Shown: one piece after another, positions 10,017 through 43,049 of the stretch
Layout of the letters: each line of letters begins with the position of its first letter
Position numbering within the stretch: position 1 is the first letter of the stretch
Source of the DNA: an uncultured virus (IMG/VR IMGVR_UViG_3300037296_000406)
Taxonomy: Duplodnaviria > Heunggongvirae > Uroviricota > Caudoviricetes
IMG/VR virus record: IMGVR_UViG_3300037296_000406
DNA length: 64,000 bases
Direction: 5' to 3' (one strand)
Position numbers and translations under genes: made by a program
The notes under the pieces: generated by a model
Database searches by the model: none
Told to the model about the DNA's origin: nothing
The model's input: only the letters and a program-made list of their open reading frames with translations

Positions 10017-10036
10017 ATAATACCTATATACATTTT

Positions 10037-13004: not shown

Positions 13005-13075
13005 ATGATCTTATAATTATTATTTTTTTTAATTTTGTATTTTTTATTAGTATATAACACTAATAAGGAGTTACA

Positions 13076-13555: not shown

Positions 13556-13589
13556 TAGAGATCATTTTAATTTACCCATTTAGAGATTT

Positions 13590-15234: not shown

Positions 15235-15236
15235 TA

Positions 15237-25509: not shown

Positions 25510-25519
25510 TACAACTCCA

Positions 25520-26230
25520 TTATAATTCAATTTGTTCTCCTGAAATTGGGTCTACGATATGTTTAAACATTATCCCTTCAACTATTAAACCTTCAGGATT
25601 ATGTTTCTTAGCTCCAATATATCTAACAGTCATTTCTATTGTTGGTTGAGTTTTTTGCATTCTACCAATCTTTCTTTTACTGAGATATCCCGTAAATATT
25701 ATTTTCCAAGATTCTTTGCCATCAATTTTTCTAATTTTTAAATTTTGGGAATCAGCTACATAGAATTTACTGTAATTGCCTATTTCGATACTGCTTCTTA
25801 TTTTATCTATTGCTGCCAATCTTGCTTCATATGTTTTCTGAAAAATACCTTCTGTATGATTTGCTATGTATTCAAAGAAAGGTTGGGCATCTTCTTTAGT
25901 TCTAGGAAATAACCTAGTCGTAAACGTTAAAGCAAAACTTTTAAGTAGATTATCTATATCAACTACATCTGCTTTATCTAGAGTTTTAAGGATTACAGGT
26001 CTGTCTAAATCGAACGACCTTGGACACATTACTTGAGGAATAGAGTCGTCTGTTGCCATATGATATATCGAATAAATATTGTGAAAAACCATTAAAGCAA
26101 CTAGTCCAATAAGAATTCCCATTGCATTTAACAGGCTAATTCTAGCTGAATCTTTTTTATCTAATTCAGCTAGATCTGATTTATCTATTAATGACTCATC
26201 ATTCAAATTGTTATCGTTTTCATCACTCAT
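25520..26230 (-). CDS. VirB8/TrbF/DotI-like bitopic T4SS protein
   Basis: Single TM, NTF2-like layout, C-terminal NPEGLIV (NPxG signature). Confidence 0.7.
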   Translation of the reverse strand: MSDENDNNLNDESLIDKSDLAELDKKDSARISLLNAMGILIGLVALMVFHNIYSIYHMATDDSIPQVMCPRSFDLDRPVILKTLDKADVVDIDNLLKSFALTFTTRLFPRTKEDAQPFFEYIANHTEGIFQKTYEARLAAIDKIRSSIEIGNYSKFYVADSQNLKIRKIDGKESWKIIFTGYLSKRKIGRMQKTQPTIEMTVRYIGAKKHNPEGLIVEGIMFKHIVDPISGEQIEL

Positions 26231-26259
26231 TATTTCCTCTTATTTTTTAATATTATTTT

Positions 26260-26595
26260 TTATTCTGCAGAAGTCTTTTTAGCTTTCTTCGAAGGAACCT
26301 CTGGAACAACATCTTCTTGAATCACAGGTTCAACAAGGTCTTTATCAACTAATGGTTCTTTTTTAGATAACCTGTTTGAATACTTTGGAAGACCAACAAC
26401 TAACGCAGTTAATACCCCAGCAACTAACATCAAACCTTTTCCTGAAACTAATCCTGCAACAACCATTGCAACAAGAACATACAAAATTACTGTTTCATAT
26501 CCTTTTATTTTAGGTAGCAATTTTAACTTTACTTGAGATTCAACCTTATCCGTTGAATCTTTAATCTTTTTAGACACTTCATTAATTTTTTTCAT
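26260..26595 (-). CDS. Two-TM membrane protein
   Basis: Hydrophobic hairpin; SD AGGAG; in the putative T4SS operon. Confidence 0.7.
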   Translation of the reverse strand: MKKINEVSKKIKDSTDKVESQVKLKLLPKIKGYETVILYVLVAMVVAGLVSGKGLMLVAGVLTALVVGLPKYSNRLSKKEPLVDKDLVEPVIQEDVVPEVPSKKAKKTSAE

Positions 26596-26608
26596 ATCAA
26601 TCTCCTAT

Positions 26609-27676
26609 TTATTGTCCTGATACAGAACTTTCTTCTATTTTTACTTTAGGGTCATCCGAAGTCACAATAATCATCGGAAATGTACTTTGGTCACATCTAA
26701 TTTTATGACCTAAAACAGGAATTTCTTTATCTCCTATTCTAACTGATTTAGCTAAAACCGAACCAACAATTTTTATAACTTTCCCAGATGCATCTCGTTC
26801 TTCTTCAATAACCTCAACAGGTGTTTTTTGAAGATTATAGTTTTTAATCTTTGGTTTAGTACCTAATGCTCTATATACTCTAAAATCTGGAAAACATAAA
26901 GCAGTTAAGAAAACTTTTTGTCCTACAAGGGAAACAGATAAAGGATCAATATCTTTTATAGTTTCTTTAACGTCCTTACTTGCTAAGATATTAGTAGATC
27001 CTACTATTTCATAAGTAATATCTTGAGTATCACACACAACTGACTGCTTATCTCCTCTAACTCCATAAAAGTAAGCTACATTTGAATTCTCTTCAGAAGT
27101 TTTAACATTTGTTACTGATATAGTTTGTCTAATAAATGGCTCTAATATTTTATTCGATTTTGGGTCCATACATGTTCCAGATACAATTAAATCTTTATTT
27201 ATGTATTGTGTAAAATTGCTTACAGATACTTCTTTTATAATCATTTTAGTTATTTCAGGAATAGAAATTGTGGCATTGAAATTAACTAACTCTTTAATTG
27301 CTCCAACTCTATCAATAGATATTCTTGATAAATCACACTTGACATATTCACGAGTTTTTCTTATAATACCTTCTAAACTTTCTTGAGATATACTAGACAC
27401 AACGATTTGGTCTTCAGCCAAGTTACTTCTAGGATTATCATAAAAATCTGCACAAACTCCTGTAACTCTTACAGTAGTTCCTTTCATTCCGAAATATCCT
27501 AATTCATAAAAACGTCCAAAAACAAAAGCAGTTAAGATTACCCATGGAATTGGGTTTCCGAAAACTACTCTTAAGATTTTCTTTAAAAATTGAGCAATCT
27601 TATAAGCCATTCTCTGTAAAAAATTTCTTTTTTTGCCATCTTTTGTAAATTCTTCATTTTCTTCTTGTTTTTCCAT
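26609..27676 (-). CDS. Membrane-anchored protein with three repeated Cys-pair beta domains
   Basis: TM followed by VRVTGVC...VKCD, LIVSGTC...VVCD and VFLTALC...IRCD. Start MEKQE at 27676 with SD AGGTG; CCATTTA at 27709-27715. Confidence 0.7.
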   Translation of the reverse strand: MEKQEENEEFTKDGKKRNFLQRMAYKIAQFLKKILRVVFGNPIPWVILTAFVFGRFYELGYFGMKGTTVRVTGVCADFYDNPRSNLAEDQIVVSSISQESLEGIIRKTREYVKCDLSRISIDRVGAIKELVNFNATISIPEITKMIIKEVSVSNFTQYINKDLIVSGTCMDPKSNKILEPFIRQTISVTNVKTSEENSNVAYFYGVRGDKQSVVCDTQDITYEIVGSTNILASKDVKETIKDIDPLSVSLVGQKVFLTALCFPDFRVYRALGTKPKIKNYNLQKTPVEVIEEERDASGKVIKIVGSVLAKSVRIGDKEIPVLGHKIRCDQSTFPMIIVTSDDPKVKIEESSVSGQ

Positions 27677-27749
27677 GCTATACACCTTTATAGTTAATTT
27701 CAACTAATTAAATGGAAAGTTTATTAATTATTAGCTACATTTTATTTTA

Positions 27750-28448: not shown

Positions 28449-28498
28449 AAATAAAACTCCTTGTTTACTCTTATATTCGTTTTCTATGATTAAAAGCC

Positions 28499-28526
28499 AA
28501 AAAAAATACCACAAAAGTGGTATTTT
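28499..28526 (-). terminator. Intrinsic terminator
   Basis: Perfect 10-bp stem AAAATACCAC-AAAA-GTGGTATTTT with a U-run on the minus strand. Confidence 0.75.
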
Positions 28527-28546
28527 CTTTATAGTAATAGTATTTT

Positions 28547-28978
28547 TTAGGGCTTAAATATTGTTTGATAGAATTCTCTATAAGAACCTGTGTTGTTTTT
28601 ACATAAAACTCTAAGAGGTAATTTATCAGTAAAAACGATAAGTTTACTTGGTTGAATAGTAACTTCTCCTAAATCTGATTGACATTCTGTAATATTAGGA
28701 TCAATGGCAACATCACCATTTCTTGTAGTAGTAGGTCTGGTTATTTCTATTTTTCCATCTGAAATATTTGGTCCGTCGATTGTTACTTCCTGATAATCAA
28801 TTTTGTCAACATCTACAGAAGAACTAAAATAAACCAATGATTTATTGGGTTCAGATGATGTTGAAGCGGTTACGTATTCATTGAGTTTTAAACTCATTTG
28901 TCTGTGTTTAGCTTTATCAGCACCAAAAGATATGTTAGTAAATGTAATTGCTAATATTAAAAATAAAATTTTTTTCAT
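28547..28978 (-). CDS. Secreted hypothetical protein
   Basis: Signal peptide (SFG/A); SD AAGGAG; CCATTTA at 29000-29006. Confidence 0.75.
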   Translation of the reverse strand: MKKILFLILAITFTNISFGADKAKHRQMSLKLNEYVTASTSSEPNKSLVYFSSSVDVDKIDYQEVTIDGPNISDGKIEITRPTTTRNGDVAIDPNITECQSDLGEVTIQPSKLIVFTDKLPLRVLCKNNTGSYREFYQTIFKP

Positions 28979-29049: not shown

Positions 29050-30810
29050 TTAAAAATTATCGTTCTTAAGAAGATATCTTACAGAAGAATCTATTTTTTT
29101 ATATAATTTTATGCCTTTTGTTGAATACGGAGCATCACTTCCTCCCGGTTGACCCGGACCAACTTTTAAAGCATCCCACTTGTATTCATTGAAATAAACA
29201 ACAGGTTCAAGAGCAAACTCTGAATTTATGCCTTGAGTGTTTGAATCTTGTTTCTTTACACAATACTTGCTTTCTTCAAACTTTGGAAGGTCATTATTTC
29301 CACCTGTACCTGCTAGTCCAGCTTCTGCTGAAGATATTAGATTGTCAATGTCATAAACAAATAATATTGCATCTCCCTGAGTTGTTCCGCTCGTACCTGC
29401 TGTGGGAACAATTATGTCCTGATTAGCTTCAAATCTCTTAGTAATTGTTTCTACTGAACAATTATCTGGACTACATAATAATAATTCAGTTCCAAAATTT
29501 CTATCTTGATATGTCCCTGAAGAACTCCATGGAATTCTCCTGTCTGGGTCTTCAGCGATAGAAACATCTGAGCATGAATTACCTATCTCTCCATAAGTTA
29601 TCCAAAATTCTAATATGGGACTTAAAACCTCAAAGTCTCCAAAGATAGAACACTCTTCGAAAAAACCTGTTTCAGCAACTTCCCAAGTAGAACCCGGAAG
29701 AGGCTCTAGAGTGTCCTCATCTAACCCCGGTTGTTCAAAAATTAAATCAGATAAACCAACAAATCTCCAACCCGGACCAGTTGGACCAGAAGAATATTGT
29801 TGACAAATTTGTTCTAACTCTCCGTTTCTCTCAGCATCTCTTATTACTTTTTCCTGTAATTGAACTGTTGTATTAAAAGCAAAAGCTCCACCACTCATTC
29901 CATTATCTTCGTCAAATGGTGTCGGACTAGATTCTGCAGGGTAACTACATCTTGAATTGTCAGAGTAAACTTCCCAAGGATTAGAAGCTCCTGCTTCTGG
30001 ATAAGAAGAAATCCCTTCTACTGTTCTGTTTAAATCTCTAGTACCCCAACAACTACTTGCGATAGAGTATTCACAATTATTTCCACCCCATTTATTTGTG
30101 CATGGTTTTCCCGCTACTGAAGAACCAAGCGGAAGAGATTCCCACTGACACTCTGCTTTAACTTTTCTTTTAACACATTTATATTTCTGAGATGTTCCTG
30201 TACACTTTTGTTTAAACTTAACTCTCTCAACATTTACTAACGAAAATTCTGTTTCAATAAAATCTAGATCAGATGTCTCTTCTAGACAACTAAATGAAGT
30301 TCTTTGAATTTCTTCAACGTCTTCTTCAACACACCTATCTGCAGGCAAATTAATATCAGCAGTTCTTCTACTTAAGAATTGGTTCTTATAGAATTCGCCA
30401 TACTCTGAAGCTAACACCTTTTCTGCACATATTTCAGATGCAGATTTTCCACTAACACCTTCATATCCGTCAATTGTCAGATTGACGTCATCAAAAACGT
30501 CTCCTACTAAAACAAAGTCTGCAGAATTAAATCCTTGTCTTTTAGATTGTAAATTTACAAATAAGTCTTTACCTGATGTATCGTTATTATTAACAGAGAA
30601 AAATAAAGCTCGAGGTTCTTGGTTACTTGGTAAGTTTATTTGAATTTCATCTTCATTAAAATCTCCTGCATCTATAAATGTCATATTTGATTTTTCTAAA
30701 TATATTGAAGAGTTAAAATCTGGTCTACATTCTCCAAAACCACAAACAACATTTTTTGTTGCTGCAAAACTACTCATATTTAAAGCTAATATAATTAATA
30801 TAATTTTCAT
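29050..30810 (-). CDS. Secreted Cys-rich frame protein, paralog C (586 aa)
   Basis: Signal peptide; N- and C-terminal regions shared with the two upstream genes; ends KKIDSSVRYLLKNDNF. Confidence 0.85.
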   Translation of the reverse strand: MKIILIILALNMSSFAATKNVVCGFGECRPDFNSSIYLEKSNMTFIDAGDFNEDEIQINLPSNQEPRALFFSVNNNDTSGKDLFVNLQSKRQGFNSADFVLVGDVFDDVNLTIDGYEGVSGKSASEICAEKVLASEYGEFYKNQFLSRRTADINLPADRCVEEDVEEIQRTSFSCLEETSDLDFIETEFSLVNVERVKFKQKCTGTSQKYKCVKRKVKAECQWESLPLGSSVAGKPCTNKWGGNNCEYSIASSCWGTRDLNRTVEGISSYPEAGASNPWEVYSDNSRCSYPAESSPTPFDEDNGMSGGAFAFNTTVQLQEKVIRDAERNGELEQICQQYSSGPTGPGWRFVGLSDLIFEQPGLDEDTLEPLPGSTWEVAETGFFEECSIFGDFEVLSPILEFWITYGEIGNSCSDVSIAEDPDRRIPWSSSGTYQDRNFGTELLLCSPDNCSVETITKRFEANQDIIVPTAGTSGTTQGDAILFVYDIDNLISSAEAGLAGTGGNNDLPKFEESKYCVKKQDSNTQGINSEFALEPVVYFNEYKWDALKVGPGQPGGSDAPYSTKGIKLYKKIDSSVRYLLKNDNF

Positions 30811-33800
30811 TATAGTAGCTCCTCTTTTAAGAAATTTCTAACAGATGAATCAACTTTTTTAAATATGTTAATTTTCTTTCCATTATCTTCAATAGGTTGA
30901 GGTTGTGCTCCTGTAGTCTCTACCTTAATTGCTTGCCAGTTATATTTTCTGAATTGAACAACTGGATCTGATGCAAAAGGAGAATCGGAACCTTCTGTGT
31001 TGGCATCTTGAATCTTATAGCAATATCTAACTTCATTTATTGTTGGTAGATCATTAACACCTTTAGTTGCATTACTTCCTTTAGTTGCTGATGCTACGAT
31101 ATTTTCTGCATCATAAATAAACATTATACCTTCACCTTGTTGTGTTCCTCGTAAATCATCATCCAGACTTATATTCGGTGTCATAGTTGCATTAATATTT
31201 TCGACATTACTTTTTATTGAACAATCACCTATTGAGCATATTACGCTTTCAACACCAAACTCTGCTTTTCTCTCAAACCCAACGTTCTTCCAATCAATCA
31301 GTCTATTTTCTGGGTCGTATTTATAATCTATGTTGTCACATCTATCGTCATCAGGATCGAATGCTATATGGGTCGTTACATAGTCCTCTTCTATTTTTTC
31401 ATGATATATAGGACATTGCTGTCCAACTTTTACATATTGTAATCCCCATAAAGATTCATCAGGAGATGTAAAATCTTCAGGATTGTATGTTGGCGCTGTT
31501 CTAGATATTTCTGGTTCTCCGTAAATATCATAGAATCCCGGACCATCTTGACCGATTACATTTGCCAAACCTTCTTGAGCTGGTGGAAGTGTTGGTCCCG
31601 CATTTGATGGAACTACTTGAACTTTAATATTATCATAATAAGAAGGATATTCTCTTTGAAAAGATCTTAACTCTAATATAGATGAACTTGACTGAGCTTG
31701 AAATACAAAGTCAATAGGTTCTCTTTTTCTAGCTGTTATCTTAGTATCTCCCTGCTCAACATCATCTCTAACCCAAACCCATCCTCGATAAACAGATTCT
31801 CTTGTTGGATTTGATCTTAAAGAACCAACTGAAACATTTGAGTTGGATGCTTGGTGGTAACATCCTAATCCAATAAATGAATCAGGAGTTGTACAATTAT
31901 TATTATCATTCATGATCAGACCAAATCTACAAGAAACTTTCCAATTTCCAGATACTATATTATTAAATCCTTTAGAATTACAGAATGGTTGATTTTCAAA
32001 ATTAGAATAGTTTTGTTGTGTAAGATTCATTATATCATATCTACCAAAAGAGATATCACTTGATGTTCCAAAAACCTCTTTTGCATTTTCTTTATTCGTT
32101 ACGAGATTCATACAGTTTTCTGTATTTATCATACAAATTCTAGTTTCTTTAGCCTCTATGCTAGTGTAAGCTCTACTTTTCATATTCTTATTAGTTGTTA
32201 AATCTAAATCTTTTTCATTGTATATTGAATCATTTGTCCAGTATGGGGAGTTGTAACTCCAAACATCTGTATTAGTGGCTAATCTAGATACTAGTGTCCA
32301 TCCACCTCCATCACTTGTCATATCACAGTAAACCTGAAATGGGTCTATAGGTCCATTTTGCCCATCTGGGTCAATAAAATATTTTCCACTTTCAATAATA
32401 TTTCCATTTTTTTGTAAATCGCTACAAGACTTAAAGTACAAATAAGCTTCTGGACTTTCACCATTTTCATCTACAAGTATAGGCTTATTTTCTACAGGAT
32501 AAATACTTCTAATAGGTTCATCTTTTGGCTTAGGAGTACCTGAAGTCGTTACTTGAACTTCTGTTATCATTGTTGACTTTCTACCAAAGTTAGGGTCATC
32601 ACAAATCATTTTTAAATAACCTGTAAATGTTCCACCAGCTTGAGGATTTGCTTTCACAGTAACAAAACAATCTTCTCCTGCAGCTAATTCATCTGGACAA
32701 GAATTTACTTCCAATTGGAAGTGAGGCGATAGTACTTCAGAAGTTGAGCCTGTATCTGACCCAATAAAAGGTTCTTCACAGTTTACTGCAGGTCTATTTT
32801 CTTCTCTATTGACAATTCTAAAATCATTAAATGGTTGAAAAGATGTATTTATCTGTTTGTAAGTAATTTGTACTCCGTAAACAAATTTTCCACGACACCC
32901 ACCTCTTAAGTCACCCGTAGTTCTTTTTTCACTTGTATATTGTTGATCACTAGAAGTTCTTATATGGTTATCAAACAAAGCTTTAGGGTTATTTGAGCAA
33001 GTCCCTTTGTAACACCAACGAGAGCATCTCCCGCTTTTACTTCCATCACAAGTCAAGGTGTTAAATAGTGCGCTACTGAAATAATCCGCATCGTTACAAC
33101 CAAAATCAGTTGTAGAACCTTGAATATAACCATAATCAAATGTTACAGATCCTCCAACCCCAATTCTTCCAAAGTGTTTATATGTTGGTACGCTGTCTAA
33201 CCAAGCAGGATTTATAAATCCTGCCGGAGTAATATCTTGTTGATAAATCTTGTTTAATTTTGGAATATCAGAATAAACATTAACTTGTCCAGCACTTCCA
33301 ATATTATCTTCAACCGATTGAGAAAAAACTCCTGTCACTCTATATTTTTTTCCAATTTCTGTAGGAATGATTTGGTTGGCGCTAGGAACGTCAGTTAAAT
33401 TAGATAAGTCTGGCGTTAAAGTTGTTTTTTTAATGTCAATAAACCCATTACTTCCAGATGGAGATTCGATTAGGTAATTTAAATTATCACTAATTAGATA
33501 ATCATACCTTAAAAAAACTTTTGCTCCTGTTCCATGTTCTGTTGGTCGACCATCGATAGAACCAGTTCCTTCAATGATAGGCGAGTGAATAAAAAATGGT
33601 ACACCATTTGTGTAAGCGTTAGTTTCTCTATAATTTATTCTTACACCATAAACAAATTTTCCACCACAACCCTTTCTCAAGTCTCTAGTAATTCTATCAA
33701 ATCCAGTGTACACCTGATTTGATTGCTTTAAAAATCCATTGAATATACCAGCTGCATTCCTACTATTTTGACATTGCCCTTTATAGCAAAATCTTTTACA

Positions 33801-36800
33801 TCTTCCGCTTTTTTTTCCATCACAAGCTATTAAATTAAAATTTTCTCCACTAAAATAATCAGCATTTGCACAACCAAAGTCTCTAGTAGAACCTTGGACA
33901 GAAGAATTGAAAAATGGTTGCTTTAAAGACATATCGTAATTATTATTTTCTTCAAGTGCGAAATCATAAAATGAATTAGAGCTTTTAAAAGTTGAACCTT
34001 TAGCTATTATAGTTCCATTAAGAATTAGTTTATTCTGAATTTCCATCTGATATATACAATTCTCTTTAGGTTTAAAAGTTAAACTTCCACCAGCTTCTAT
34101 AGTTACGTTCTGGAAAAAATATCTTTGTGAACAGTTTGAGAAGGTTATATGTTCACCGTCTCCTATTACAAGATTTGGTGCTAACGGATTAGCATTTACC
34201 TTTATCTTTTCGAAACTCCATTGACTTTTACCTTCAAGATCCCAAGAACTCGAATCTTGTGTAAAGTTACTGTTTGTTATTAGATTTGTTTCTTCTTCAA
34301 TTTCTTCGTTTAAATCATATGTCAAATTGTTACACATATATTTTAAAAGACCTTTCTCTTTCTTATCTAGATACTCAGATTCTAGCATTTGAAATTTTTT
34401 AGATTCTGATTCTGATTCGTAAGTACTATACTCTCCAACTTGACTATCTTCGATACTACCATCAGCATTAATCCAATATCTTTTTCCATTAATAAAATTT
34501 ATTATTTCTCTCTCAGTTCCATATAAACTTGGAATATTACTATTGAGTTTCGAAGATACTAGTCTTCCAGCAAATCCAAATTCACCATCATTTCCTGACT
34601 GTCCATTAGAAACACTTCCTGAAGATATTCCACCTAAACCACCTTTACCTGAACTTCCGCCGTTTAAAACTATTTCTAATTCTTCAGATAATTCTCCACC
34701 ATATTCTAAAAATAAGTTACCGCCAGAACCACCTGCTCCACCGCCTCCTCCAGAACCACCTTGACCTGAAGGTTGTCCACTAAAACCATTTTCACCATCA
34801 TTTCCTGATAGGTTAATTGAACCTTCACCTTCTATATTACCTAAGACAACAAATAACATTGATTGTCCGTGTTTAGCTCTTTGTCCACCTTTACCTGAGG
34901 CTCCCGAGCCAATACCACAACTTCCTGCGTTATTATTTGTCGGAATTGATTCTCCAGCAACTAGAAGTGTAGCTTCATTTCCATTTTGACCAGATAAATT
35001 CAGACAAGGGACATCTCCTTGAGAACCCCCTCCACCGTTTCCATCAGATGATATTCCACCGATATATCCTGTATCTTGATTTCCACCAGAACCACCAGAT
35101 GGTTGACCGACTGTAAAAGAGTAAACCTTATTCATAAGAGAGTTATTTTCCGAATAATTATCTCCAACAAAATCTCCATTTCCAGAACCATTTATCAACC
35201 CATTGTTTATAAAATTATTTTTAATAATTATTTTAGTTAAAGCTATAGATCCGTCTTCTAAATTTAATACTCCACCTTCTTCTATATTTAAAGAATCATA
35301 AATATATGTATTTCCTGAAATTAAGTTAACACTTTCACCTGAAGCTATTATTACATCACCTAAACTTCCACTAGCATTTTCAATTCCTTGAATTATTGCG
35401 CTTGAATCCATAACTTCATATGAAGCTGTTACTGGATTATAAACATAAACTTTATCTTCTACAGCATCAATAATTCTTGCAGTTTGTAAGCCACCTTTAA
35501 ATGATATTTCAGAAAAAGTAGCACCATCTTGAGACAATGCTGTGTAGCCATAAGATTTTTTACCTTTAAATTTATAAAGTTCTGGGTAATCATTTAAATT
35601 TATTTGAAATAAACTACTGTTTGGATAGCTTACTGAATTAAATTCTGAAGTCCAAGCCTGCACTAAATCACCCTCTCTTTTAACTTTTACTTTTGAAGTG
35701 CTACCTGACCATCCTCCTGAATTTGAACCAATTAATTTACTTTGTAAAACTTTACGTTCTCCAGCATTAACATTAGAAGCTCCTTCAGTAGATGAACTCC
35801 CATCTACATAGACTAAATTCCAGTTATTAGAAGCTCCAAAATTTCCACCTTTATCTCGAGAAACTATTAAATAATGATTTTTATTATTTATTCTTGTAAA
35901 TGCTATTATTATTCCAATAGAGTCATCATCAGAATTTGGTGATGATAATGTTGCCTCATGCTCGTATTCATCAAAATTTTGAGCACTAACAAATCCTATA
36001 AAATTAGAACTGTTGACTGTATCTCTCACGAAAGTACTATTATAAATCCAAGCTCCTGCCTGAGAGTATCCATAAGGTGATGTTCCTGCTGGATGAAAGT
36101 AAGAACCACCATCAAACCTTGTCCATGTTGAAAAAATTTGGTCAGTAGAAGGAGGAATGTATTGTGACAATGCCGATTCTAGTTCTGCTCTATCTGTTCC
36201 ATAAATCAAAGCATTTTCTACAGGACTTTGAGTAGATGAATATTTAAGTCTCCAGTTACATGTAATTTCAATCATAGGTGATAAACAAATATCTTGAAAA
36301 GCTACTCCTAAACATTTATTTTTACCTCTTAATCTTCTTGCTGTGACAGAAGGGTCATTTGTGTTTAGTACATTGTAATCCTGATCTCCTCCACACTGAA
36401 AAACATTAAAAGCATTCTTCTGAATATTTTGAACATCTGAAAATACACATCTATCTTCTGGTAAATTTCCACCTTGAGATTGAGATAATAACCTTGCTGT
36501 TTCAAATTCTAATTTAGCTAATTCGCCATAAATCCCTCTTTTAGTATAATCCGCACAAACTTGAGACGATGACCTACCTACTGTAGGAGAGTATCCGTCT
36601 AAATTCATTGTTACGTCTTTAAATAAATCTCCGATTAATATAGAGTCAGCAGAATTATTTTGATTTGTTGTGGCTTGTAATTTAATATCTATGCTAGCTG
36701 GAAAATAAAGGTCAGAGCTATCCATATATATTCTTAATGACCTAGGAATTTCTCCATTAGTTGTTCTTACTATGACATAATTATCTTGGTTGTTGTTACC

Positions 36801-36956
36801 TAAATCAAAAGAAGAATGAAATATTTTATCAAAGCTATTTTCAGGGACAAAATCAGATGAACAGGTGTCTCTCCCACAAGAAATTGAGCTAACTGGCTGA
36901 GCATAAACGCTAACCGTAAAAGAGATAAATAAAATCAAATACTTACATATATTCAT
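30810..36956 (-). CDS. Giant secreted adhesin-like frame protein, paralog B (2048 aa)
   Basis: Signal peptide; lectin/TSP-C-like segment (DDDSIGIIIAF), Gly-rich region, CBM-like and Ig-like domains, two Cys-rich repeats, fibrinogen-like domain (KSCSDL...SGKYFIDPDG...VYCDMTSDGGGWTLV); ends KKVDSSVRNFLKEELL. Confidence 0.9.
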   Translation of the reverse strand: MNICKYLILFISFTVSVYAQPVSSISCGRDTCSSDFVPENSFDKIFHSSFDLGNNNQDNYVIVRTTNGEIPRSLRIYMDSSDLYFPASIDIKLQATTNQNNSADSILIGDLFKDVTMNLDGYSPTVGRSSSQVCADYTKRGIYGELAKLEFETARLLSQSQGGNLPEDRCVFSDVQNIQKNAFNVFQCGGDQDYNVLNTNDPSVTARRLRGKNKCLGVAFQDICLSPMIEITCNWRLKYSSTQSPVENALIYGTDRAELESALSQYIPPSTDQIFSTWTRFDGGSYFHPAGTSPYGYSQAGAWIYNSTFVRDTVNSSNFIGFVSAQNFDEYEHEATLSSPNSDDDSIGIIIAFTRINNKNHYLIVSRDKGGNFGASNNWNLVYVDGSSSTEGASNVNAGERKVLQSKLIGSNSGGWSGSTSKVKVKREGDLVQAWTSEFNSVSYPNSSLFQINLNDYPELYKFKGKKSYGYTALSQDGATFSEISFKGGLQTARIIDAVEDKVYVYNPVTASYEVMDSSAIIQGIENASGSLGDVIIASGESVNLISGNTYIYDSLNIEEGGVLNLEDGSIALTKIIIKNNFINNGLINGSGNGDFVGDNYSENNSLMNKVYSFTVGQPSGGSGGNQDTGYIGGISSDGNGGGGSQGDVPCLNLSGQNGNEATLLVAGESIPTNNNAGSCGIGSGASGKGGQRAKHGQSMLFVVLGNIEGEGSINLSGNDGENGFSGQPSGQGGSGGGGGAGGSGGNLFLEYGGELSEELEIVLNGGSSGKGGLGGISSGSVSNGQSGNDGEFGFAGRLVSSKLNSNIPSLYGTEREIINFINGKRYWINADGSIEDSQVGEYSTYESESESKKFQMLESEYLDKKEKGLLKYMCNNLTYDLNEEIEEETNLITNSNFTQDSSSWDLEGKSQWSFEKIKVNANPLAPNLVIGDGEHITFSNCSQRYFFQNVTIEAGGSLTFKPKENCIYQMEIQNKLILNGTIIAKGSTFKSSNSFYDFALEENNNYDMSLKQPFFNSSVQGSTRDFGCANADYFSGENFNLIACDGKKSGRCKRFCYKGQCQNSRNAAGIFNGFLKQSNQVYTGFDRITRDLRKGCGGKFVYGVRINYRETNAYTNGVPFFIHSPIIEGTGSIDGRPTEHGTGAKVFLRYDYLISDNLNYLIESPSGSNGFIDIKKTTLTPDLSNLTDVPSANQIIPTEIGKKYRVTGVFSQSVEDNIGSAGQVNVYSDIPKLNKIYQQDITPAGFINPAWLDSVPTYKHFGRIGVGGSVTFDYGYIQGSTTDFGCNDADYFSSALFNTLTCDGSKSGRCSRWCYKGTCSNNPKALFDNHIRTSSDQQYTSEKRTTGDLRGGCRGKFVYGVQITYKQINTSFQPFNDFRIVNREENRPAVNCEEPFIGSDTGSTSEVLSPHFQLEVNSCPDELAAGEDCFVTVKANPQAGGTFTGYLKMICDDPNFGRKSTMITEVQVTTSGTPKPKDEPIRSIYPVENKPILVDENGESPEAYLYFKSCSDLQKNGNIIESGKYFIDPDGQNGPIDPFQVYCDMTSDGGGWTLVSRLATNTDVWSYNSPYWTNDSIYNEKDLDLTTNKNMKSRAYTSIEAKETRICMINTENCMNLVTNKENAKEVFGTSSDISFGRYDIMNLTQQNYSNFENQPFCNSKGFNNIVSGNWKVSCRFGLIMNDNNNCTTPDSFIGLGCYHQASNSNVSVGSLRSNPTRESVYRGWVWVRDDVEQGDTKITARKREPIDFVFQAQSSSSILELRSFQREYPSYYDNIKVQVVPSNAGPTLPPAQEGLANVIGQDGPGFYDIYGEPEISRTAPTYNPEDFTSPDESLWGLQYVKVGQQCPIYHEKIEEDYVTTHIAFDPDDDRCDNIDYKYDPENRLIDWKNVGFERKAEFGVESVICSIGDCSIKSNVENINATMTPNISLDDDLRGTQQGEGIMFIYDAENIVASATKGSNATKGVNDLPTINEVRYCYKIQDANTEGSDSPFASDPVVQFRKYNWQAIKVETTGAQPQPIEDNGKKINIFKKVDSSVRNFLKEELL

Positions 36957-37003
36957 ATACTATTACCTTATTATATAAATGTATAATAACGCTCCTTTTA
37001 CAA

Positions 37004-39730
37004 TTAAAAAATTTCATTTTTCATAAGATATCTAACAGAAGAGTCTATTTTCTTATAGTATTTAATATCTTTCCCATTATTCCTTGGAGTTTGACCAAAG
37101 TTTCCTTCATCAATTATATTAATTGGCTTCCAGTTGTATTTAATAAAATTAACTTTAGGATTGGATGCCCAAGGACTATCTATTCCTAGAGTATTTGCAT
37201 CACTTATTTTAGCACAAGACCTTTGTTCTTCTTTTAGTGGTAAATTATTGATACCTATATCACCACCTCTTCCGTTCATTGCTGTTCCAGATAAGTTGGT
37301 AAAGTCATAAATAAAGACAACACCTTCTCCTTGTTGTGTCCCATTTGTACCTGAGCCTAAGTTAAAATCTACTAAATTCTTTTCTTTTTCTTCGGTTGTA
37401 AAATCTACTAAACAATTTCCCGCAGAACATTGAACTAATTCTGTTCCAAATTCTGGCTTTCTCTCAAAGTTAACAAACTCCCATCGAATTAGTTTACTGC
37501 TAGGATCTTCTGGGATATAAACATCATCACATAAATTATCATTATCATCATAACCAATATTACTAGCCAAATGTTCAGCTTTTTCAATAGAGAAATATTC
37601 GGGACATGATTTTCCTAAACCAATATATCTAATTCTCCAATCAGATTCTTCAGGAACTGTATAATATCTCTCATCAATCCCCGGAGATGTTAAATTAGCA
37701 TTGACAGATGCTAAATCATAATATCCATGCCCTTGAGAACCACTAACACAGCCTTCTGTAGCCGATGAAGGACATTTTAAATCCGAAGGAGGCTTAATTG
37801 ATGGACCTGATGTAGGACTTAGTTGAGTTACAATTATTTTATCAAAAATAGCTCCGTGTTCTGGAATCAATGTTTTTAATTCGATAACACTGTTTTGACT
37901 ATTTGCTCTAAAAACAAAATCAATTGACTTACTCTCAAATCTGTTTGATGGGTTGATATCAATTTTTTTAACAAGAATAGGCTCTTTAATTTCAGGAACA
38001 ACTAGACCTGATTCGTAGACCATATCCGCAGGTTCATATCCATAAAACCATTTTCCTGAAACGAAGTCTGGTGATATTGATTCAACTTGTGTTGAGCTAA
38101 AACAGTTTTTTCCATTCTCATAGTCTTCTTGACATTTTTGCCATGAAAAAGTTAAAGTATCGAATCTCCAGTAAAAACCATCTATAAATTTTGTTTCTGG
38201 AGCTGGAGCAGATGCAATTGATGGTTGAATAAAATCTTGATATGCCATCAAAGATATTTTTTCATTTAATGTTGAAGTAAAGTTACCAAAATCATCTTCA
38301 CAATCTCTTTTTAAAAAGCTTTCTTTTAGCCCGTATGATTGAGGAAAGGCTCTCACTGTTACTTCACAAGTGCCACCAGACTCTAAATTATTAACGCCAC
38401 ATGTTTGATTAATGATTGAAAATGATGAAGTGTCTCCTGATATGTATACTACTGAACAATTAATTGCATCTCTAGAATCTTTATTCTTTATAGTAAAAGT
38501 TTTACTTTCAGAAGACAAAGGAATTTTTAAAAATCCAAAGTCGTATGGAGCACTATCTATAGTTAAAAAAACAGGTTTAATACTACCATTTTCAAATATA
38601 TTTTCAGAATATAGAGCTGTTGTTTTACTAATATCTGAAAAGACTGAAACTTTTCCACTATCGACATTTAAATTGTTTTCATCTTTTCGCCATACAGCTT
38701 GTACTCTATAATCATTCCCCGGAGTTGTGCTAATAACTTGTTGAGCTGAAGCTATTTGTGAAAAATCTTCAAGGTCAGGTAATAATTTAATAGATTCAGT
38801 ATCATCCCAAACGGCTGAGTTACTAGACCAACCTGCTATATTAAAATAAAATTCTCCATTCTGTATTATATCAAAGGGTTCTTGAACTCCATCTATATAA
38901 CTTAAATTATTACAAATAAATTTTCTATAAGCAGGGTCGTTTTGGTTTTCATTATATTCTTGCTCTGGTAAAGTTAATATTCTTACTTCTTTTTTTAGGT
39001 CAGAGGTATCGAAAGAACCTTCTATTTGAGTTGGGAAAGTGTATTTTACTCTGTATGTACACTCTACTTTAACTGTCTTACTTAGACAAACATTAATATA
39101 ACCAAGACCTAAACATCTATTTTTACCTTTAATTCTAGATACAATTACCGATGGATTATTTGTGTCTTCAATTTCTGTATATCCGTCATCACACTGAAAC
39201 TTATCAAATAAGTTATCTACATCGAAGGATACGCAATCTTCTTTAGGCAGGTTAGGCTCTAAAAACCTAGCTTCGTCAAATGATGTTTTAAGTTCTGATC
39301 CGAAAGCTCCTAAATCTTCTTTTTCGTACTCTTCATAACAAAGTTTACTACTATTTTTTCCATCAACACCAGAGTAGCCATTAAGGTTAATTTCTATATT
39401 ATTTAAAAAATCACCTAAAATTAAAAAATCACCCGCATTATTATCATCATTATTTGGAGTTAAATTCACAGTCAAATTTTTGCCCACAATACTATTATTC
39501 TCAACAGAAAGTCTTAGGCTTCTAGGTCCACCATTTTCATTAACTTTTACAATAATATCATCAGGGTTATTTTGACCGACATCAATACTAGTGTAATATA
39601 GTTTATCTACTTGCCTCTCGGGTAAAAAATCGGGATTACAAGAGCTTTCATTACAATCAATAATTTTTGTTCCTGCGATAGAAACAGGTATTGTAATTAA
39701 GAATAAGATCAAATAGACAATATTACGCAT
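37004..39730 (-). CDS. Secreted frame protein, paralog A (908 aa)
   Basis: Signal peptide; CBM-like and Ig-like (YDFG...TFTIKN...LESGGTCEVTVRAFP) inserts; ends KKIDSSVRYLMKNEIF. Confidence 0.88.
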   Translation of the reverse strand: MRNIVYLILFLITIPVSIAGTKIIDCNESSCNPDFLPERQVDKLYYTSIDVGQNNPDDIIVKVNENGGPRSLRLSVENNSIVGKNLTVNLTPNNDDNNAGDFLILGDFLNNIEINLNGYSGVDGKNSSKLCYEEYEKEDLGAFGSELKTSFDEARFLEPNLPKEDCVSFDVDNLFDKFQCDDGYTEIEDTNNPSVIVSRIKGKNRCLGLGYINVCLSKTVKVECTYRVKYTFPTQIEGSFDTSDLKKEVRILTLPEQEYNENQNDPAYRKFICNNLSYIDGVQEPFDIIQNGEFYFNIAGWSSNSAVWDDTESIKLLPDLEDFSQIASAQQVISTTPGNDYRVQAVWRKDENNLNVDSGKVSVFSDISKTTALYSENIFENGSIKPVFLTIDSAPYDFGFLKIPLSSESKTFTIKNKDSRDAINCSVVYISGDTSSFSIINQTCGVNNLESGGTCEVTVRAFPQSYGLKESFLKRDCEDDFGNFTSTLNEKISLMAYQDFIQPSIASAPAPETKFIDGFYWRFDTLTFSWQKCQEDYENGKNCFSSTQVESISPDFVSGKWFYGYEPADMVYESGLVVPEIKEPILVKKIDINPSNRFESKSIDFVFRANSQNSVIELKTLIPEHGAIFDKIIVTQLSPTSGPSIKPPSDLKCPSSATEGCVSGSQGHGYYDLASVNANLTSPGIDERYYTVPEESDWRIRYIGLGKSCPEYFSIEKAEHLASNIGYDDNDNLCDDVYIPEDPSSKLIRWEFVNFERKPEFGTELVQCSAGNCLVDFTTEEKEKNLVDFNLGSGTNGTQQGEGVVFIYDFTNLSGTAMNGRGGDIGINNLPLKEEQRSCAKISDANTLGIDSPWASNPKVNFIKYNWKPINIIDEGNFGQTPRNNGKDIKYYKKIDSSVRYLMKNEIF

Positions 39731-39769: not shown

Positions 39770-41983
39770 TTAATAAGAGGGTCCTTTGGATTTTTCTATA
39801 TAGCCATCTTCTTCAATAACAGAAGATTCTGTATTATTCCATATTGGGTATTCTTGTTGATTTCTTATTTTTTCTGTATTATCTTGCTTTATTTCAAGAT
39901 AACGTTCTTCAAGAGATTTTACTTTATAATTTTTAAGTTCAATTACTTCGACTTCTCCTGATCCTCTAAGAATACTTTTATCATCTGTATTGTATTTTTC
40001 TATTTTATCTTTATTCTTTTTTCTTAAAACTTTATTTAGTTCTTCTTGTATTTTAATCTTTTGTCTAAACTCTTCTTTTTCTTTATCTAATTTTAATTTC
40101 ATTTCTTTTTTCTTAATTTCTTCAATTTTAATTTTATAATCATTGTAAAAATTACTATAATCAGATGTTTCTGTATCCTTATCTAACGACTGCTCCATTA
40201 AAGAATTGATTTTATCTTTAGTCTCTTTTACAACTGAAGATGTATCTCGTAATTTTATCTTAAATTTAGGAACTATACTTTTAGGTAATTCTTTTTTTAC
40301 TAATTCTACATCTTTTTTTACAATTATAATTTTATTTTTTTTACTATTTTTAATTTCCATTAAAGTTCGACCATCTGCCATTACTTTCGCTTGTTCAGCT
40401 CTTAGCTTATTAGCTCTTAACCTGCTTAACTTATTTTTAATAGCTTTCTCTTCTTTCTTTAAATTTTTATTTTTTGCTTTAATTATTATTTTTTTAAAAA
40501 CAGCTTTCTCTTTTCTCAATATATTCATTGCTTTTTTTTCATTTAAAGATTTTGTTGAATATACAGTTATCTTATTTTTATCGAGATCTTTTCCATATTT
40601 TTTCTTAATTTTCTTTGCTACTTTGTCTATAGAACTTCTTCTCATTCTTAAAAGTCTTTTAGCCCAATGAAATTCTTTAACAGCTTTCTCTTTTGTTATT
40701 TCTTTTTTTTCATATAAATCTATAAAATAATCAACACTGCGTAATGTTTCTTTAATTCGCATTTCTCTTGATTTTAAATACTTTATATCTTTAATATCTA
40801 GTTCAGTTCTATTTACAAACTTTTCATTTATTAATGCCTTACTAACAGTAACTTCATTTGGTAAATCTTTTTTAACTTCTTTCTTTCGAACTTCTTCAAT
40901 AGTATAAAATGGCAAAACTGAATGTCCTTCTAAAGAATTTAGGTCTTTACCTTCTTTTTTATTTTCTTTATTAATAAAAGAAGATAATTCTTTTTTCAAT
41001 TTTTCTTTGTCTACCTCATCAATTGAGTTGTTTTTTCTAATAATAACATCCGATTCAATTAAAGATTCTACACGTTCAACATCACTTTCGACATCCATAT
41101 AATCAAAAGAGCTTTCTCTAATTTCTTTTTTAGATGTTGTTTCATATGTTTGAACCTTTGAATATTTTTTATTTTTATCATCTTTAGAGAAAATATTAAA
41201 ATCACTAATTAGCGAAACAAAAACCCTTACGTTATTTTCCTCTCTTTGATTTCCGATTCCACTTCCCATCCCTAATCTAGTTTTTAATGAATAAAGATCT
41301 AAAGTAAAATGATTTAATAGTTCTGTAGATTTTCTATTTATCATAGAATCATGTAATAATTCCGCGCCCCAAGTTAAATCATCGTTTATATAATAGGATA
41401 AACCTAAACCAAATTGGTCTCTTTCTGATTGGTTAATATCACGATAAATACTATTATCTAAAAAAATCTTTCCAACTGTATAATTTAAATTAAGTTTTTT
41501 ATTTAAAGATTTACCACCTACAATTCTACCACCGAACCCTCCTGAACGGGACCCAGAAGTAAATTCTCCGTTGCCCATTGATAATATATACACAGGAATA
41601 ATTGAAAAATAGTCAAAAATATTAATTTTAGCTTCTAAGTAAATATCACTAAATCCAGTATACTGATCAATATTAGACTTTGAATCTGTAATAGTAGAAA
41701 TGTATGGCGCAGATATTCCTAATTCTAAAAAACTATTTAAACCATACACTGCAGAAAAATCTAAGTCATTAATGCCACCTACTTTAGAATCTTCTTCTAC
41801 ATATGGATTAGAACCCAAAGAATAAGAAAAAGAAGTCTGTAGATACCCTTGCCTTAATATTTTATAGTCTGATATAGATTCATATGTAGACTTGTCAGAA
41901 TTTCTGAATTTAGATTGTATATCTAAAGCATAAACATTTTGTATTGTAAAAAGAGCTATTGCTAAGTATTTTAATTGATTCAT
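39770..41983 (-). CDS. Putative outer-membrane beta-barrel protein with long Lys-rich C-terminal region
   Basis: Signal peptide; ~250 aa of amphipathic strands (LELGISAPY, SDIYLEAKI, QFGLGLSYY) followed by charged helical sequence. Confidence 0.7.
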   Translation of the reverse strand: MNQLKYLAIALFTIQNVYALDIQSKFRNSDKSTYESISDYKILRQGYLQTSFSYSLGSNPYVEEDSKVGGINDLDFSAVYGLNSFLELGISAPYISTITDSKSNIDQYTGFSDIYLEAKINIFDYFSIIPVYILSMGNGEFTSGSRSGGFGGRIVGGKSLNKKLNLNYTVGKIFLDNSIYRDINQSERDQFGLGLSYYINDDLTWGAELLHDSMINRKSTELLNHFTLDLYSLKTRLGMGSGIGNQREENNVRVFVSLISDFNIFSKDDKNKKYSKVQTYETTSKKEIRESSFDYMDVESDVERVESLIESDVIIRKNNSIDEVDKEKLKKELSSFINKENKKEGKDLNSLEGHSVLPFYTIEEVRKKEVKKDLPNEVTVSKALINEKFVNRTELDIKDIKYLKSREMRIKETLRSVDYFIDLYEKKEITKEKAVKEFHWAKRLLRMRRSSIDKVAKKIKKKYGKDLDKNKITVYSTKSLNEKKAMNILRKEKAVFKKIIIKAKNKNLKKEEKAIKNKLSRLRANKLRAEQAKVMADGRTLMEIKNSKKNKIIIVKKDVELVKKELPKSIVPKFKIKLRDTSSVVKETKDKINSLMEQSLDKDTETSDYSNFYNDYKIKIEEIKKKEMKLKLDKEKEEFRQKIKIQEELNKVLRKKNKDKIEKYNTDDKSILRGSGEVEVIELKNYKVKSLEERYLEIKQDNTEKIRNQQEYPIWNNTESSVIEEDGYIEKSKGPSY

Positions 41984-42008: not shown

Positions 42009-43049
42009 TTATAATAAAGCTTTTTTCAAGTCTTCTTCATTATAATTTTTTCTATTGATCATATTGTTTATTTCAGCAATTAATTTTATTTTTAATTTTA
42101 AGTCTTTTACTGATCCTAATTTATTCAATGTCGCTAATACTAAAAGTATATTTCTACTCCCTTTAATAAAAGACTTTATAGCTAAATATTCTTCTTTTCT
42201 ATTTGATAAATTAGTACCATTTAAAATCTCTGATTCGGTTAACCCATGATCTTGTATCTTTAAGTTATATTTAATATTAATTTTTTCTTGTTTAGCTATT
42301 AAAAAATTATATATTCTTTTTGATTCGTTTGATTCATTATTTTTTATTCTACTTAAAAATGTGTTAACTTGAACATACCCATTTTCCCATAATAGCTGGT
42401 ATCTTTCATTATTATCTTGCTTCATTTCCATCAACAATCTTCTGTTAAATTTTTGACGGTCAGTCATATCTCCTCGTATTTTAACGGAAAGATAATTTGT
42501 AGATAGTCCTCTTTCTGATATTTCTTTTTCAATATCTTGGCGCTCTTTTAGCATATTTTTATAATTAGAACTAAATTTATTAAACTGTCTTGCAATATCA
42601 GGAGACGATGGTTTATCAACAATTGAATAATATTCTAAATTTTCAACAAGTTCCATCTTTAATGAAGTAGAAAAAGAACTACTTATATTCTCATTACTAG
42701 AATAATCTTGATTAAAACTTGTTAAATCTAGATAAAAAATTTTGTAGTCATCTTTGGATAAAATTGTTCCTAGAAAAAAAGAATCATTAATATCTTTTAG
42801 TATTACTGTTGTATGTTCTTTGATTTCTTTTATGGCTTTTCTTTTATTAGCTAAACTTTTTAAATCTTCTCGAGAAAGACGTTCAGCAAAATTTTGCTTT
42901 AATGCGCAATATGGACCAATGCCTGCGACGATTGATTCAGGATTTGTCAATCTTGTCGAACAGATAGGACACTCAATATATTCTTTTTTTAATTTCTCTT
43001 TCTTTTTTTCTATTTTTTCTTTTTTCTCTGAAAGTCTTCTAAATATCAT
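42009..43049 (-). CDS. DUF6011-like zinc-binding domain protein
   Basis: CPICSTRLTNPESIVAGIGPYC matches the CxxCxxxLTxPxSxxxGIGPxC pattern. Confidence 0.75.
   Translation of the reverse strand: MIFRRLSEKKEKIEKKKEKLKKEYIECPICSTRLTNPESIVAGIGPYCALKQNFAERLSREDLKSLANKRKAIKEIKEHTTVILKDINDSFFLGTILSKDDYKIFYLDLTSFNQDYSSNENISSSFSTSLKMELVENLEYYSIVDKPSSPDIARQFNKFSSNYKNMLKERQDIEKEISERGLSTNYLSVKIRGDMTDRQKFNRRLLMEMKQDNNERYQLLWENGYVQVNTFLSRIKNNESNESKRIYNFLIAKQEKINIKYNLKIQDHGLTESEILNGTNLSNRKEEYLAIKSFIKGSRNILLVLATLNKLGSVKDLKLKIKLIAEINNMINRKNYNEEDLKKALL

Follow-up and report, generated by a model that had tools for sequence, protein, structure and literature searches.

Three tandem exported paralogs with a conserved two-part frame around variable inserts, candidate adhesins for target-cell contact

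The window, i.e., the whole 64,000-nucleotide stretch of DNA that was analysed, is assigned to an uncultured salt-lake bacterium of a predatory type and encodes three co-directional and near-contiguous paralogous genes (P0001, P0002, and P0003; Table 1), the last two of which share 1 nt. In all three products, a Sec-type signal peptide lacking a lipobox was read by eye; the products contain 22, 42, and 18 cysteines, respectively. A 737-aa ORF situated 39 nt upstream of P0001 encodes a protein with a beta-rich N-terminal part of ~260 aa followed by a long Lys/Glu-rich region; it is the putative barrel of the initial annotation. On the other side, a terminator-like hairpin is the probable end of the paralog transcription unit, judging from the sequence, and stands between the paralogs and a set of VirB10-like genes.

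Table 1. Features of the paralog locus and of its surroundings in the window.
Feature	Position (nt)	Strand	Residues (aa)	Description
P0001	37004..39730	minus	908	ORF, exported paralog
P0001 N frame	39050-39730	minus	1-227
P0001 cargo			228-662	Ig-like/choice-of-anchor-D module at 391-469
P0001 C frame	37007-37744	minus	663-908
P0002	30810..36956	minus	2048	ORF, exported paralog
P0002 N frame	36249-36956	minus	1-236
P0002 cargo			237-1800	Tail-fibre-type module 249-507; Ig-like module ~1380-1455; fibrinogen-like module 1505-1730; also Gly-rich repeats and an internally duplicated Cys-rich module
P0002 C frame	30813-31556	minus	1801-2048
P0003	29050..30810	minus	586	ORF, exported paralog; structure-modelled protein
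P0003 N frame	30133-30810	minus	1-226
P0003 middle			227-340	Short, 5 Cys
P0003 C frame	29053-29790	minus	341-586
143-aa ORF	28547..28978	minus	143	Signal peptide; last gene before the hairpin; no family found
Terminator-like hairpin	28498..28531	minus		15 pairs and T run; consensus scan only (8 sites found vs 6.1 expected)
737-aa ORF	39770..41983	minus	737	Signal peptide; no family found
346-aa protein	42009..43049	minus	346	DUF6011-type CxxC...GPxC zinc ribbon
1610-aa lipoprotein	43059..47891	minus	1610	Thrombospondin-type-3 calcium-binding repeats
843-aa protein	21924..24455	minus	843	C-terminal TrbI/VirB10 domain, aa 664-838
Four genes	24478..27703	minus	350, 236, 111, 364	Order beside the VirB10-like gene kept in genome G443
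506-aa ORF	3260-4780		506	FtsK/HerA-like

The three proteins share an N-terminal part of ~225 aa (N frame; 30-36% pairwise identity over 225-239 aa, BLASTP E-values of 3e-29 to 5e-42) and a C-terminal part of ~245 aa (C frame; 32-39% identity over 246-310 aa, E-values of 7e-33 to 4e-62), with the C terminus being the most conserved part. The alignments confirm the common frames proposed by the initial annotation and display the motifs it quoted (PRSL, DGY, FGTE..CS..C, GT.QG, F(I/V)YD, N(D/N)LP, and KK(I/V)DSSVR), although the C frame is longer than the ~170 aa it gave. The C frame consists of two sub-parts, and the last ~145 aa alone are kept in distant relatives. No long DNA repeats linking the three genes were found; the duplications are old, and nothing points to cassettes having been exchanged recently. 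No alternative cargo occurred in the contigs of four salt-lake runs, which were at least 99% alike in 93 of 100 pieces of the stretch. One joint in these contigs (34686 to 38306), with a shorter side of 21 letters only, is probably spurious.

Purpose-built frame HMMs delimited middles of 114 aa in P0003, 435 aa in P0001, and 1564 aa in P0002, against the ~150 to 1600 aa proposed initially. The middles of P0001 and P0002 are partly related because three additional modules are common to both (BLASTP E-values of 2e-11, 2e-7, and 0.002). The P0002 cargo includes a fibrinogen-like/GGGWT module and a phage tail-fibre module (phrog_33406, 2.4e-27), Ig-like modules occur in both P0001 and P0002, and the cargo of relatives includes PA14, NHL, He_PIG, fn3, and Big_13. 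All inserts that could be named are of binding or Ig type, in agreement with the receptor-binding cargo suggested initially, but no cargo could be named in 55 of the 63 relatives scanned, and the term "binding module" therefore holds for a minority only. Enzymatic or toxin families were found neither in P0001-P0003 nor in the 63 relatives.

The frames define an undescribed, unnamed family. Neither frame matched Pfam, NCBIfam, PHROG, or PDB (the initial annotation had not recognised a known family either), a PDB sequence search with the C frame gave no match, and the ESM Atlas gave no usable match. At E ≤ 1e-3, a profile search recovered 185 of 1.84 billion cluster representatives; 72 were recovered at E ≤ 1e-30. 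Locus scans of genome, metagenome, and viral contigs and a tblastn search of a plasmid collection found no relatives. The family was found in 2 of the 401 genomes sampled from the phylum, in 1 of 238 from the order, and in none of the four nearest genomes. It occurs in three forms, namely as fused proteins, as bare N+C proteins without an insert (e.g., the 444-aa P0036), and in a split form in which neighbouring genes encode the N part with its cargo and, separately, a C protein of ~270 aa. Among 155 family proteins, 69 are fused, 47 are N-only, and 39 are C-only; inserts range from none to 1564 aa with a median of 166 aa (own frame HMMs). The C-only proteins have signal peptides of their own. 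Since the profiles of N-only and C-only proteins share the signal peptide only, an origin of one frame by duplication of the other was rejected.

The split form is known as adjacent genes from one genome, G110, where a gene for a 630-aa N-only protein overlaps the gene for a 267-aa C-only protein by 4 nt and a second N-only/C-only pair follows, with one opposite-strand gene separating them. The cysteine content of the family follows a parity rule, counted on related sequences with the mature-protein starts set by hand. The number of cysteines is odd in 34 of 37 N-only proteins and in 23 of 25 C-only proteins (exactly five in 21), whereas it is even in all 31 fused proteins (37 listed, six without a landmark dropped). 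Of 40 fused proteins (69 considered, 29 dropped), 35 have an odd number in the C frame, and 35 have an odd number on the N side. Odd counts in the separate parts against even counts in the fused proteins therefore predict a disulfide joining the two parts, probably between a cysteine that closely follows the N frame and the C frame's fifth cysteine, which is unpaired. Independent occurrence of the two parts, which the initial annotation had named as counting against its reading, is literally observed, yet the genomic context and the cysteine parity turn it into evidence for interaction.

The AlphaFold2 model of P0003, built from a 149-sequence alignment (a 7-sequence alignment gave a pLDDT of 40.2), has a mean pLDDT of 88.2 with both frames at 87-98, but a pTM of only 0.66 and a low-confidence middle. 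In the model, the N frame comprises short beta strands, four helices, and a long hairpin, and the C frame is mostly beta. Alignment against all of PDB returned generic beta-solenoid rows in which the matched model ranges start at residues 16-18 and end at 568-586, and the N-C contact suggested here is read from these first and last aligned residues rather than from model coordinates. The likenesses include HMW1, EtpA, hemolysin TPS domains, and the UpaB passenger, all at Z 4.2-4.8, a band that, according to the tool, marks a common arrangement. With Foldseek, neither PDB nor BFVD yielded a match at E ≤ 0.001 (best E 1.3). The modelled fold may resemble monomeric beta-helix adhesins such as autotransporter passengers and TpsA domains, but Pfam detected no translocator barrel or TPS family in P0001-P0003. 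Many disulfides are unusual for autotransporter and two-partner-secretion adhesins of this type. The adjacent split genes, the cysteine parity, and the fold-match ranges spanning both ends make it very probable that the two halves work as one base, as originally suggested.

The TrbI/VirB10-domain gene lies 4.6 kb downstream of the paralogs. Its 843-aa product has an N-terminal membrane helix, a long coiled Ala/Glu-rich linker, and a domain matching PF03743 (E 7.8e-10, 39.3 bits, cut-off 35; 41.1 bits for the G443 homolog). Beside it, the 350- and 236-aa genes are also kept in G110, and BLAST identities for the four-gene set are 19-29%, with E-values of 5e-21 to 4e-9 for the 350- and 236-aa genes and 3e-5 for the 364-aa gene (G443 only); the 111-aa gene was without a match among the matches listed. 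By position and topology, the 350-aa product may be VirB9-like and the 236-aa product VirB8-like, and no PDB relatives were found for the profiles of these two genes. PDB sequence searches with the VirB10-like, 350-aa, and 506-aa proteins gave no match either. The scanned ORFs of the window, which is part of a 519-kb contig, had no Pfam or NCBIfam match to VirB4 ATPase, coupling protein, VirB8, or VirB9 families, and the 506-aa ORF encodes the sole Walker-A protein without an assignment in the window. VirB4, VirD4, and relaxase were found neither in the window nor on the G110 and G443 contigs with frame genes, and PF03135 and PF02534 are absent from contigs C104 of G110 and C2 of G443. The distance between the frame genes and the VirB10-like gene is 128 kb in G110 and 65 kb in G443. 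A 246-aa OMP-like gene and a 1125-aa lipoprotein gene in G110 were considered as orthologs of the 737- and 1610-aa genes of the window and rejected because they share no sequence similarity.

Cysteine-rich front and back parts around differing binding modules make these proteins look like a new surface adhesin scaffold. We give roughly even chances to the reading that the paralogs are target-cell adhesins, in which a disulfide-stapled two-part base displays variable binding domains. After Sec export, the N and C domains of each disulfide-rich protein would assemble into a single base from which the insert would be held out as a variable ligand-binding module, and the three paralogs may provide one cell with three binding specificities for the surfaces of other cells. 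Their likeliest use would be to contact a target cell, be it a recipient or prey, because the paralogs adjoin the gene set with the VirB10/TrbI-domain protein. A similar design is known from TraN of F-like conjugative plasmids, in which, according to excerpts of the source, 22 conserved cysteines are present, conserved N- and C-terminal parts surround a variable centre with the C part folding back onto the N part, and the variable middle "tip" determines which recipient surface protein is bound (PMC9246713). As far as that description goes, both are exported and cysteine-rich (P0001 also has 22 cysteines), and both traN and the paralogs adjoin conjugation-type genes. The likeness is one of shared design rather than homology: no Pfam TraN match was obtained for P0001-P0003 at E ≤ 0.1 or for the 63 relatives at E ≤ 0.001, the neighbours seen are VirB10-like and unnamed genes rather than an F-type tra operon, the inserts amount to entire additional domains and reach 1564 aa, and the frame family also exists as two separate proteins.

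Alternatively, the paralogs may be prey-recognition adhesins of predatory Bacteriovoracaceae, unrelated to the VirB10-like genes, with the base on the predator surface and the cargo binding prey glycans. This is rather unlikely, although a ParC-like gene is 59-62% identical to those of Bacteriovoracaceae MAGs, the cargo is lectin-like and of tail-fibre type, and the terminator-like site stands between the paralogs and the VirB10-like unit. (A plasmid nature of the window was considered and not retained, the short ParC being usual for this order.) The mosaic adhesive trimer (MAT) fibres of Bdellovibrio bacteriovorus, as presented in excerpts of the source, similarly combine an invariant anchoring domain with exchangeable tips, including lectin folds and phage-like parts, in the exported repertoire of a predator lineage; their variable domain is C-terminal on a trimeric beta-helix fibre, however, whereas that of the paralogs is internal between two conserved ends (PMC10769870). 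Pfam detected neither S74 nor another MAT-type family in P0001-P0003. The distribution of the frame family given above argues for sporadic occurrence and against a core trait of predation, integrase, transposase, DnaB, ParA, and LPD1 genes occur at the G110 and G443 loci, and predation by the organism is itself deduced from relatives.

It is improbable that the paralogs are ordinary multidomain proteins with independent, non-touching frames, a middle shaped by domain gain and loss, and stand-alone forms that act alone. The frequency of N-only and C-only proteins, the pTM, and the low-confidence middle would suit such proteins, but the parity rule, the 4-nt overlap in G110, the fold matches covering both termini, and the insert-free N+C proteins speak against them.

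It is highly improbable that the three paralogs form a heterotrimer or cap a pilus or a type IV secretion channel, with their C-terminal motif serving for assembly or sorting. The three co-directional genes, the TrbI/VirB10 domain as a likeness to VirB/D4-type systems, and a weak fold row (Z 5.3, inside the noise band given by the tool itself) with an outer-membrane-complex chain of the Legionella Dot T4SS fit this proposal of the initial annotation, but relatives have one (G443) or two (G110) copies of the frame gene rather than three, and no pilin, VirB4, or VirD4 was seen. The sorting-signal idea finds no support either, as the motif is modelled as a confident internal helix (575-585) and is followed by variable tails in C-only proteins.

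Secreted effectors or enzymes, in which the frames would serve for delivery or translocation and the insert would be a toxin or hydrolase payload, are the least probable. Polymorphic toxins join a conserved N-terminal trafficking part to a toxin that varies at the C terminus, with an immunity gene adjacent. A payload varying between conserved parts and the mobile-element-like surroundings in relatives are outweighed by the conserved C terminus, which departs from a trafficking-N/toxin-C layout, by the lack of toxin or enzymatic families, by named inserts that are all of binding or Ig type, and by insert-free members.

Returning to target-cell adhesins, a more specific and doubtful version is that the proteins represent a new architecture, a beta-solenoid base made of two non-homologous pieces and one locking disulfide, delivered as a single chain or as two co-secreted chains, and serving as the target-recognition module of an atypical VirB10/TrbI machine on mobile elements of predatory Bacteriovoracales. 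If so, the inserted domain would determine the cells with which contact is made, be it for attack or for the transfer of DNA or protein. Should the adhesin reading hold, the family would be a natural "plug-in" display scaffold in which two small conserved pieces, even when supplied as separate chains, accommodate inserts of 0 to ~1600 residues, and which would be of interest to protein engineers. It would also bear on the choice of target cells by predatory bacteria or their mobile elements and on how adhesin specificity evolves through domain insertion rather than end-swapping. The frame family would also offer names and testable roles for ~185 protein clusters that are now without annotation.

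The three exported paralogs P0001, P0002, and P0003 share a conserved N-terminal part ("N frame"; 30-36% identity across 225-239 aa, E 3e-29 to 5e-42) and a conserved C-terminal part ("C frame"; 32-39% identity across 246-310 aa, E 7e-33 to 4e-62) in all three pairwise BLASTP comparisons, which bears out the common ends proposed in the initial annotation. The C frame exists as proposed, but it is about 245 aa long, more than the earlier estimate of about 170 residues. Based on the frame HMMs built here, the variable middles ("cargo") are 114, 435, and 1564 aa, and three middle modules are common to P0001 and P0002. The paralogs are considered old because no long DNA repeats were found between the three genes.

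Neither frame has a match in Pfam, NCBIfam, or PHROGs, in agreement with the earlier statement that the frame is not a recognised family; the C-frame profile also had no match among PDB sequences, and an ESM Atlas search returned nothing. Against 1.84 billion cluster representatives, the frame profile identified 185 proteins at E ≤ 1e-3, of which 169 remain at ≤ 1e-10 and 72 at ≤ 1e-30, and the ten family clusters that were looked up are metagenome-derived and either unnamed or "hypothetical". A search of species-representative genomes picked up the C frame in none of the 4 nearest, 1 of 238 from the order, and 2 of 401 sampled from the phylum, counts to be read as "not found" rather than "absent" because the genome search scores few first-look candidates per genome. 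The window stretch itself occurs whole in one salt-lake metagenome run (possibly its source) and in part in 16 others, with no RNA run among those listed. Contigs from four of these metagenome runs are all but identical to the window, with no alternative cargo.

Separate N and C HMMs divided 155 family proteins into 69 with both frames ("fused"), 47 N-only, and 39 C-only, some of the single-frame proteins being fragments (e.g., P0040, a piece of a 913-aa protein). Many single-frame proteins are full-length: some two dozen C-only proteins of ~270 aa consist of a signal peptide and the C frame, and in N-only proteins of 440-710 aa a signal peptide and the N frame are followed by other C-terminal parts. 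In profile-profile alignments of N-only against C-only proteins, the signal peptides alone align, and thus the N-only proteins contain no hidden C frame. The same alignments ruled out the two frames as duplicates of each other. The distance between the frames in fused proteins ranges from none to 1564 aa (median 166), and P0036 (444 aa) is fused without an insert. The split forms adjoin each other in the related genome G110, where a 630-aa N-only gene and a 267-aa C-only gene overlap by 4 nt, followed by a 562-aa N-only gene, one opposite-strand gene, and a second 267-aa C-only gene. Another relative, G443, has one fused gene (670 aa).

The cysteine content of these proteins depends on their form. 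Exactly 5 Cys occur in 21 of 25 complete C-only proteins, with 7 in two and 6 in two (odd in 23/25), and the count is odd in 34 of 37 N-only proteins and even in 31/31 fused proteins (37 listed, 6 without the C-x(3-6)-C landmark left out); these counts come from mutually related sequences and are not independent trials, and the parity rule stands across representatives less than 50% identical. In a second count on all 69 fused proteins (40 with the landmark used, 29 left out), the C frame has 5 Cys in 26/40 and an odd number in 35/40, and the part before the C frame likewise has an odd number in 35/40. The N frame proper usually contains 8 Cys in these 40 proteins, and the odd Cys sits directly behind it. 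Most simply, this parity would reflect a single disulfide that links the N side to the C frame and would be intramolecular in the fused form and intermolecular in the split form.

An AF2 model of P0003 from 7 sequences had a pLDDT of 40.2, and the model used here, from 149 family members, has a mean pLDDT of 88.2 and a pTM of 0.66. The N frame (residues 20-225, pLDDT 91-98) is modelled as eight short strands, four helices, and a long hairpin, the middle (residues 227-310) has a pLDDT of 49-65, and the C frame (residues 340-586, mostly 87-98) is mostly beta with a terminal helix (575-585) that includes the KKIDSSVRYL motif. Foldseek found no match to this model in the PDB (best E 1.3) or BFVD (best E 0.2). 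Among 48,161 PDB representatives, one chain reached Z ≥ 8 and 20 chains reached Z ≥ 5. The CsgA curli fibril ranks first (Z 9.4, yet with an rmsd of 9.1 Å), and the remaining rows are beta-solenoids, including the C-terminal domain of CAP (Z 6.9, 96 residues aligned at an rmsd of 2.8 Å), SufB/SufD, TBCC/RP2, UreD, TPS domains, an autotransporter passenger, and tailspikes. Since Z 7-8 is typical of models without a true match according to the alignment tool, the P0003 model is read as a beta-solenoid-like arrangement without a known relative. Judged by the first and last aligned residues, which are all that the alignment reports, nearly all PDB rows extend from model residues 16-18 to 568-586, an indication that the final strand and helix of the C frame pack against the N-frame solenoid.

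The P0002 cargo includes a fibrinogen/intelectin-like module (aa ~1505-1730; Pfam 1.3e-8, NCBIfam GGGWT 4.4e-18, phrog_1325 6.3e-21, and PDB fibrinogen/tenascin/intelectin) and a module common to phage tail-fibre and virion proteins (aa 249-507; phrog_33406, 2.4e-27). An Ig-like "choice-of-anchor D" module in P0001 and P0002 is under the family cut-off. The non-frame part has a Pfam match in 8 of 63 relatives scanned and none in the other 55, the matches being PA14/GLEYA, NHL, He_PIG (two proteins), fn3, Big_13, and Lcl_C (under cut-off). No enzyme or toxin family was found in the cargo of the paralogs or of these 63 relatives. The P0002 cargo also contains an internal duplication encoding a Cys-rich "GC.GKFVYGV" module, present twice.

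The window (G+C ~30%) is part of a 518,954-bp contig, and its ParC-like gene shares 59-62% identity with those of Bacteriovoracaceae MAGs. Genomes G003 and G110 both combine a single GyrA (825-826 aa) with one short ParC (476-491 aa); the short form looks normal in the order containing Bacteriovoracaceae, which makes the window stretch chromosomal. Co-directional minus-strand genes span 47891 to 21924. The best terminator-like hairpin of 28.1-48.1 kb is directly behind the 143-aa gene, which points to the paralogs and the VirB10-like genes probably being separate transcription units. Among NCBIfam entries, the 1610-aa lipoprotein scores best against MtsC, a cell-cohesion protein of Myxococcus (2.9e-29, far under cut-off). 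Upstream, window 1-15300 encodes a C5 DNA methylase, an FtsK/HerA-like ATPase, an RNase T-type exonuclease, topoisomerase IA, and ParA/ParB; homologs of the methylase and exonuclease are close to frame genes in G110 or G443.

Features of the window, in order of descending position
Feature	Position	Strand	Description
ParC-like subunit	57129-58529	+	only 466 aa
474-aa protein	51207-52631	-	two ~240-aa repeats
RecJ-like exonuclease	47939-49612	-	phage type (phrog_2484, 2.8e-84)
1610-aa lipoprotein	43059-47891	-	thrombospondin-type-3 calcium-binding repeats throughout
346-aa protein	after 1610-aa lipoprotein gene	-	DUF6011 zinc ribbon
737-aa protein	between 346-aa protein gene and P0001	-	exported
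P0001	37004-39730	-	908-aa paralog
P0002	30810-36956	-	2048-aa paralog
Duplication in P0002 cargo	32860-33695		~771 nt apart, 75% identity across 65 nt
P0003	29050-30810	-	586-aa paralog
143-aa protein	after P0003	-	exported
Lys/Ala-repeat basic protein	27750-28514	-	between paralog unit and VirB10-like genes; C-terminal half a KKVAKKAT-type repeat run, histone-H1/AlgP-like
ORF overlapping Lys/Ala-repeat gene	27712-28101	+	mirror image of repeat
Two membrane proteins, then two more proteins	before VirB10-like gene	-	
VirB10-like protein	21924-24455	-	843 aa, TrbI/VirB10 domain
FtsK/HerA-like ATPase	3260-4780		

The 843-aa protein is above the Pfam TrbI threshold (39.3 bits vs 35), as is its G443 copy, and has the usual VirB10 layout, in which a membrane helix and a long linker precede the C-terminal domain. 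Its gene and the upstream 350- and 236-aa genes keep their order in G110 and G443 (19-33% identity). For the 364-aa gene, a match is listed in G443 only (E 3e-5), and the 111-aa gene has no match listed, with small genes at its position in the relatives. By gene order and topology alone, the 236-aa protein is VirB8-like and the 350-aa protein VirB9-like; profiles of both found no PDB relative. Families of VirB4, coupling proteins, and relaxases were seen neither in the window nor on the G110 and G443 contigs carrying the VirB10-like gene. On these contigs, the frame genes are 128 kb (G110) and 65 kb (G443) from the VirB10-like gene, and integrases, transposases, DnaB-like helicases, ParA, an LPD1 protein, and methylases are also encoded. 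Window genes shared with these contigs include the phage-type RecJ, the duplicated 474-aa protein, an NHL protein, the exonuclease, and the methylase. A RecJ-like copy (28% identity) adjoins the VirB10-like set in G110 (L018 15832-17511), and the RecJ-like gene seems to be part of the VirB10-like module rather than housekeeping repair. The 474-aa protein has no family match, and its single-repeat homologs are beside the G110 frame genes and beside the G443 VirB10-like set and an M23 peptidase. Also beside the G110 frame genes (L007 2302-4422, minus strand), a 706-aa protein starts with a CxxC...GPxC zinc ribbon as in the window DUF6011 protein (E 0.005) and ends with an LPD1 "polyvalent protein" domain (1.3e-13).

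The nearest known proteins in design are F-type TraN and the Bdellovibrio MAT fibres; P0001-P0003 matched neither family by sequence. TraN has a variable tip, 22 Cys, and conserved N and C parts that pack against each other (PMC9246713), and TraN variants are the subject of a later paper (PMC13104618). MAT fibres combine an invariant anchor with exchangeable C-terminal tips (PMC10769870). Taken together, the results fit a two-piece, disulfide-stapled base displaying an inserted binding module. The paralogs may plausibly act for the neighbouring VirB10-type machine in contacting a recipient or target, a role that the sporadic, mobile-element-like distribution slightly favours over an also plausible one in prey recognition. 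On this reading they make up an exported, adhesin-like protein family of which this genome has three specificities.
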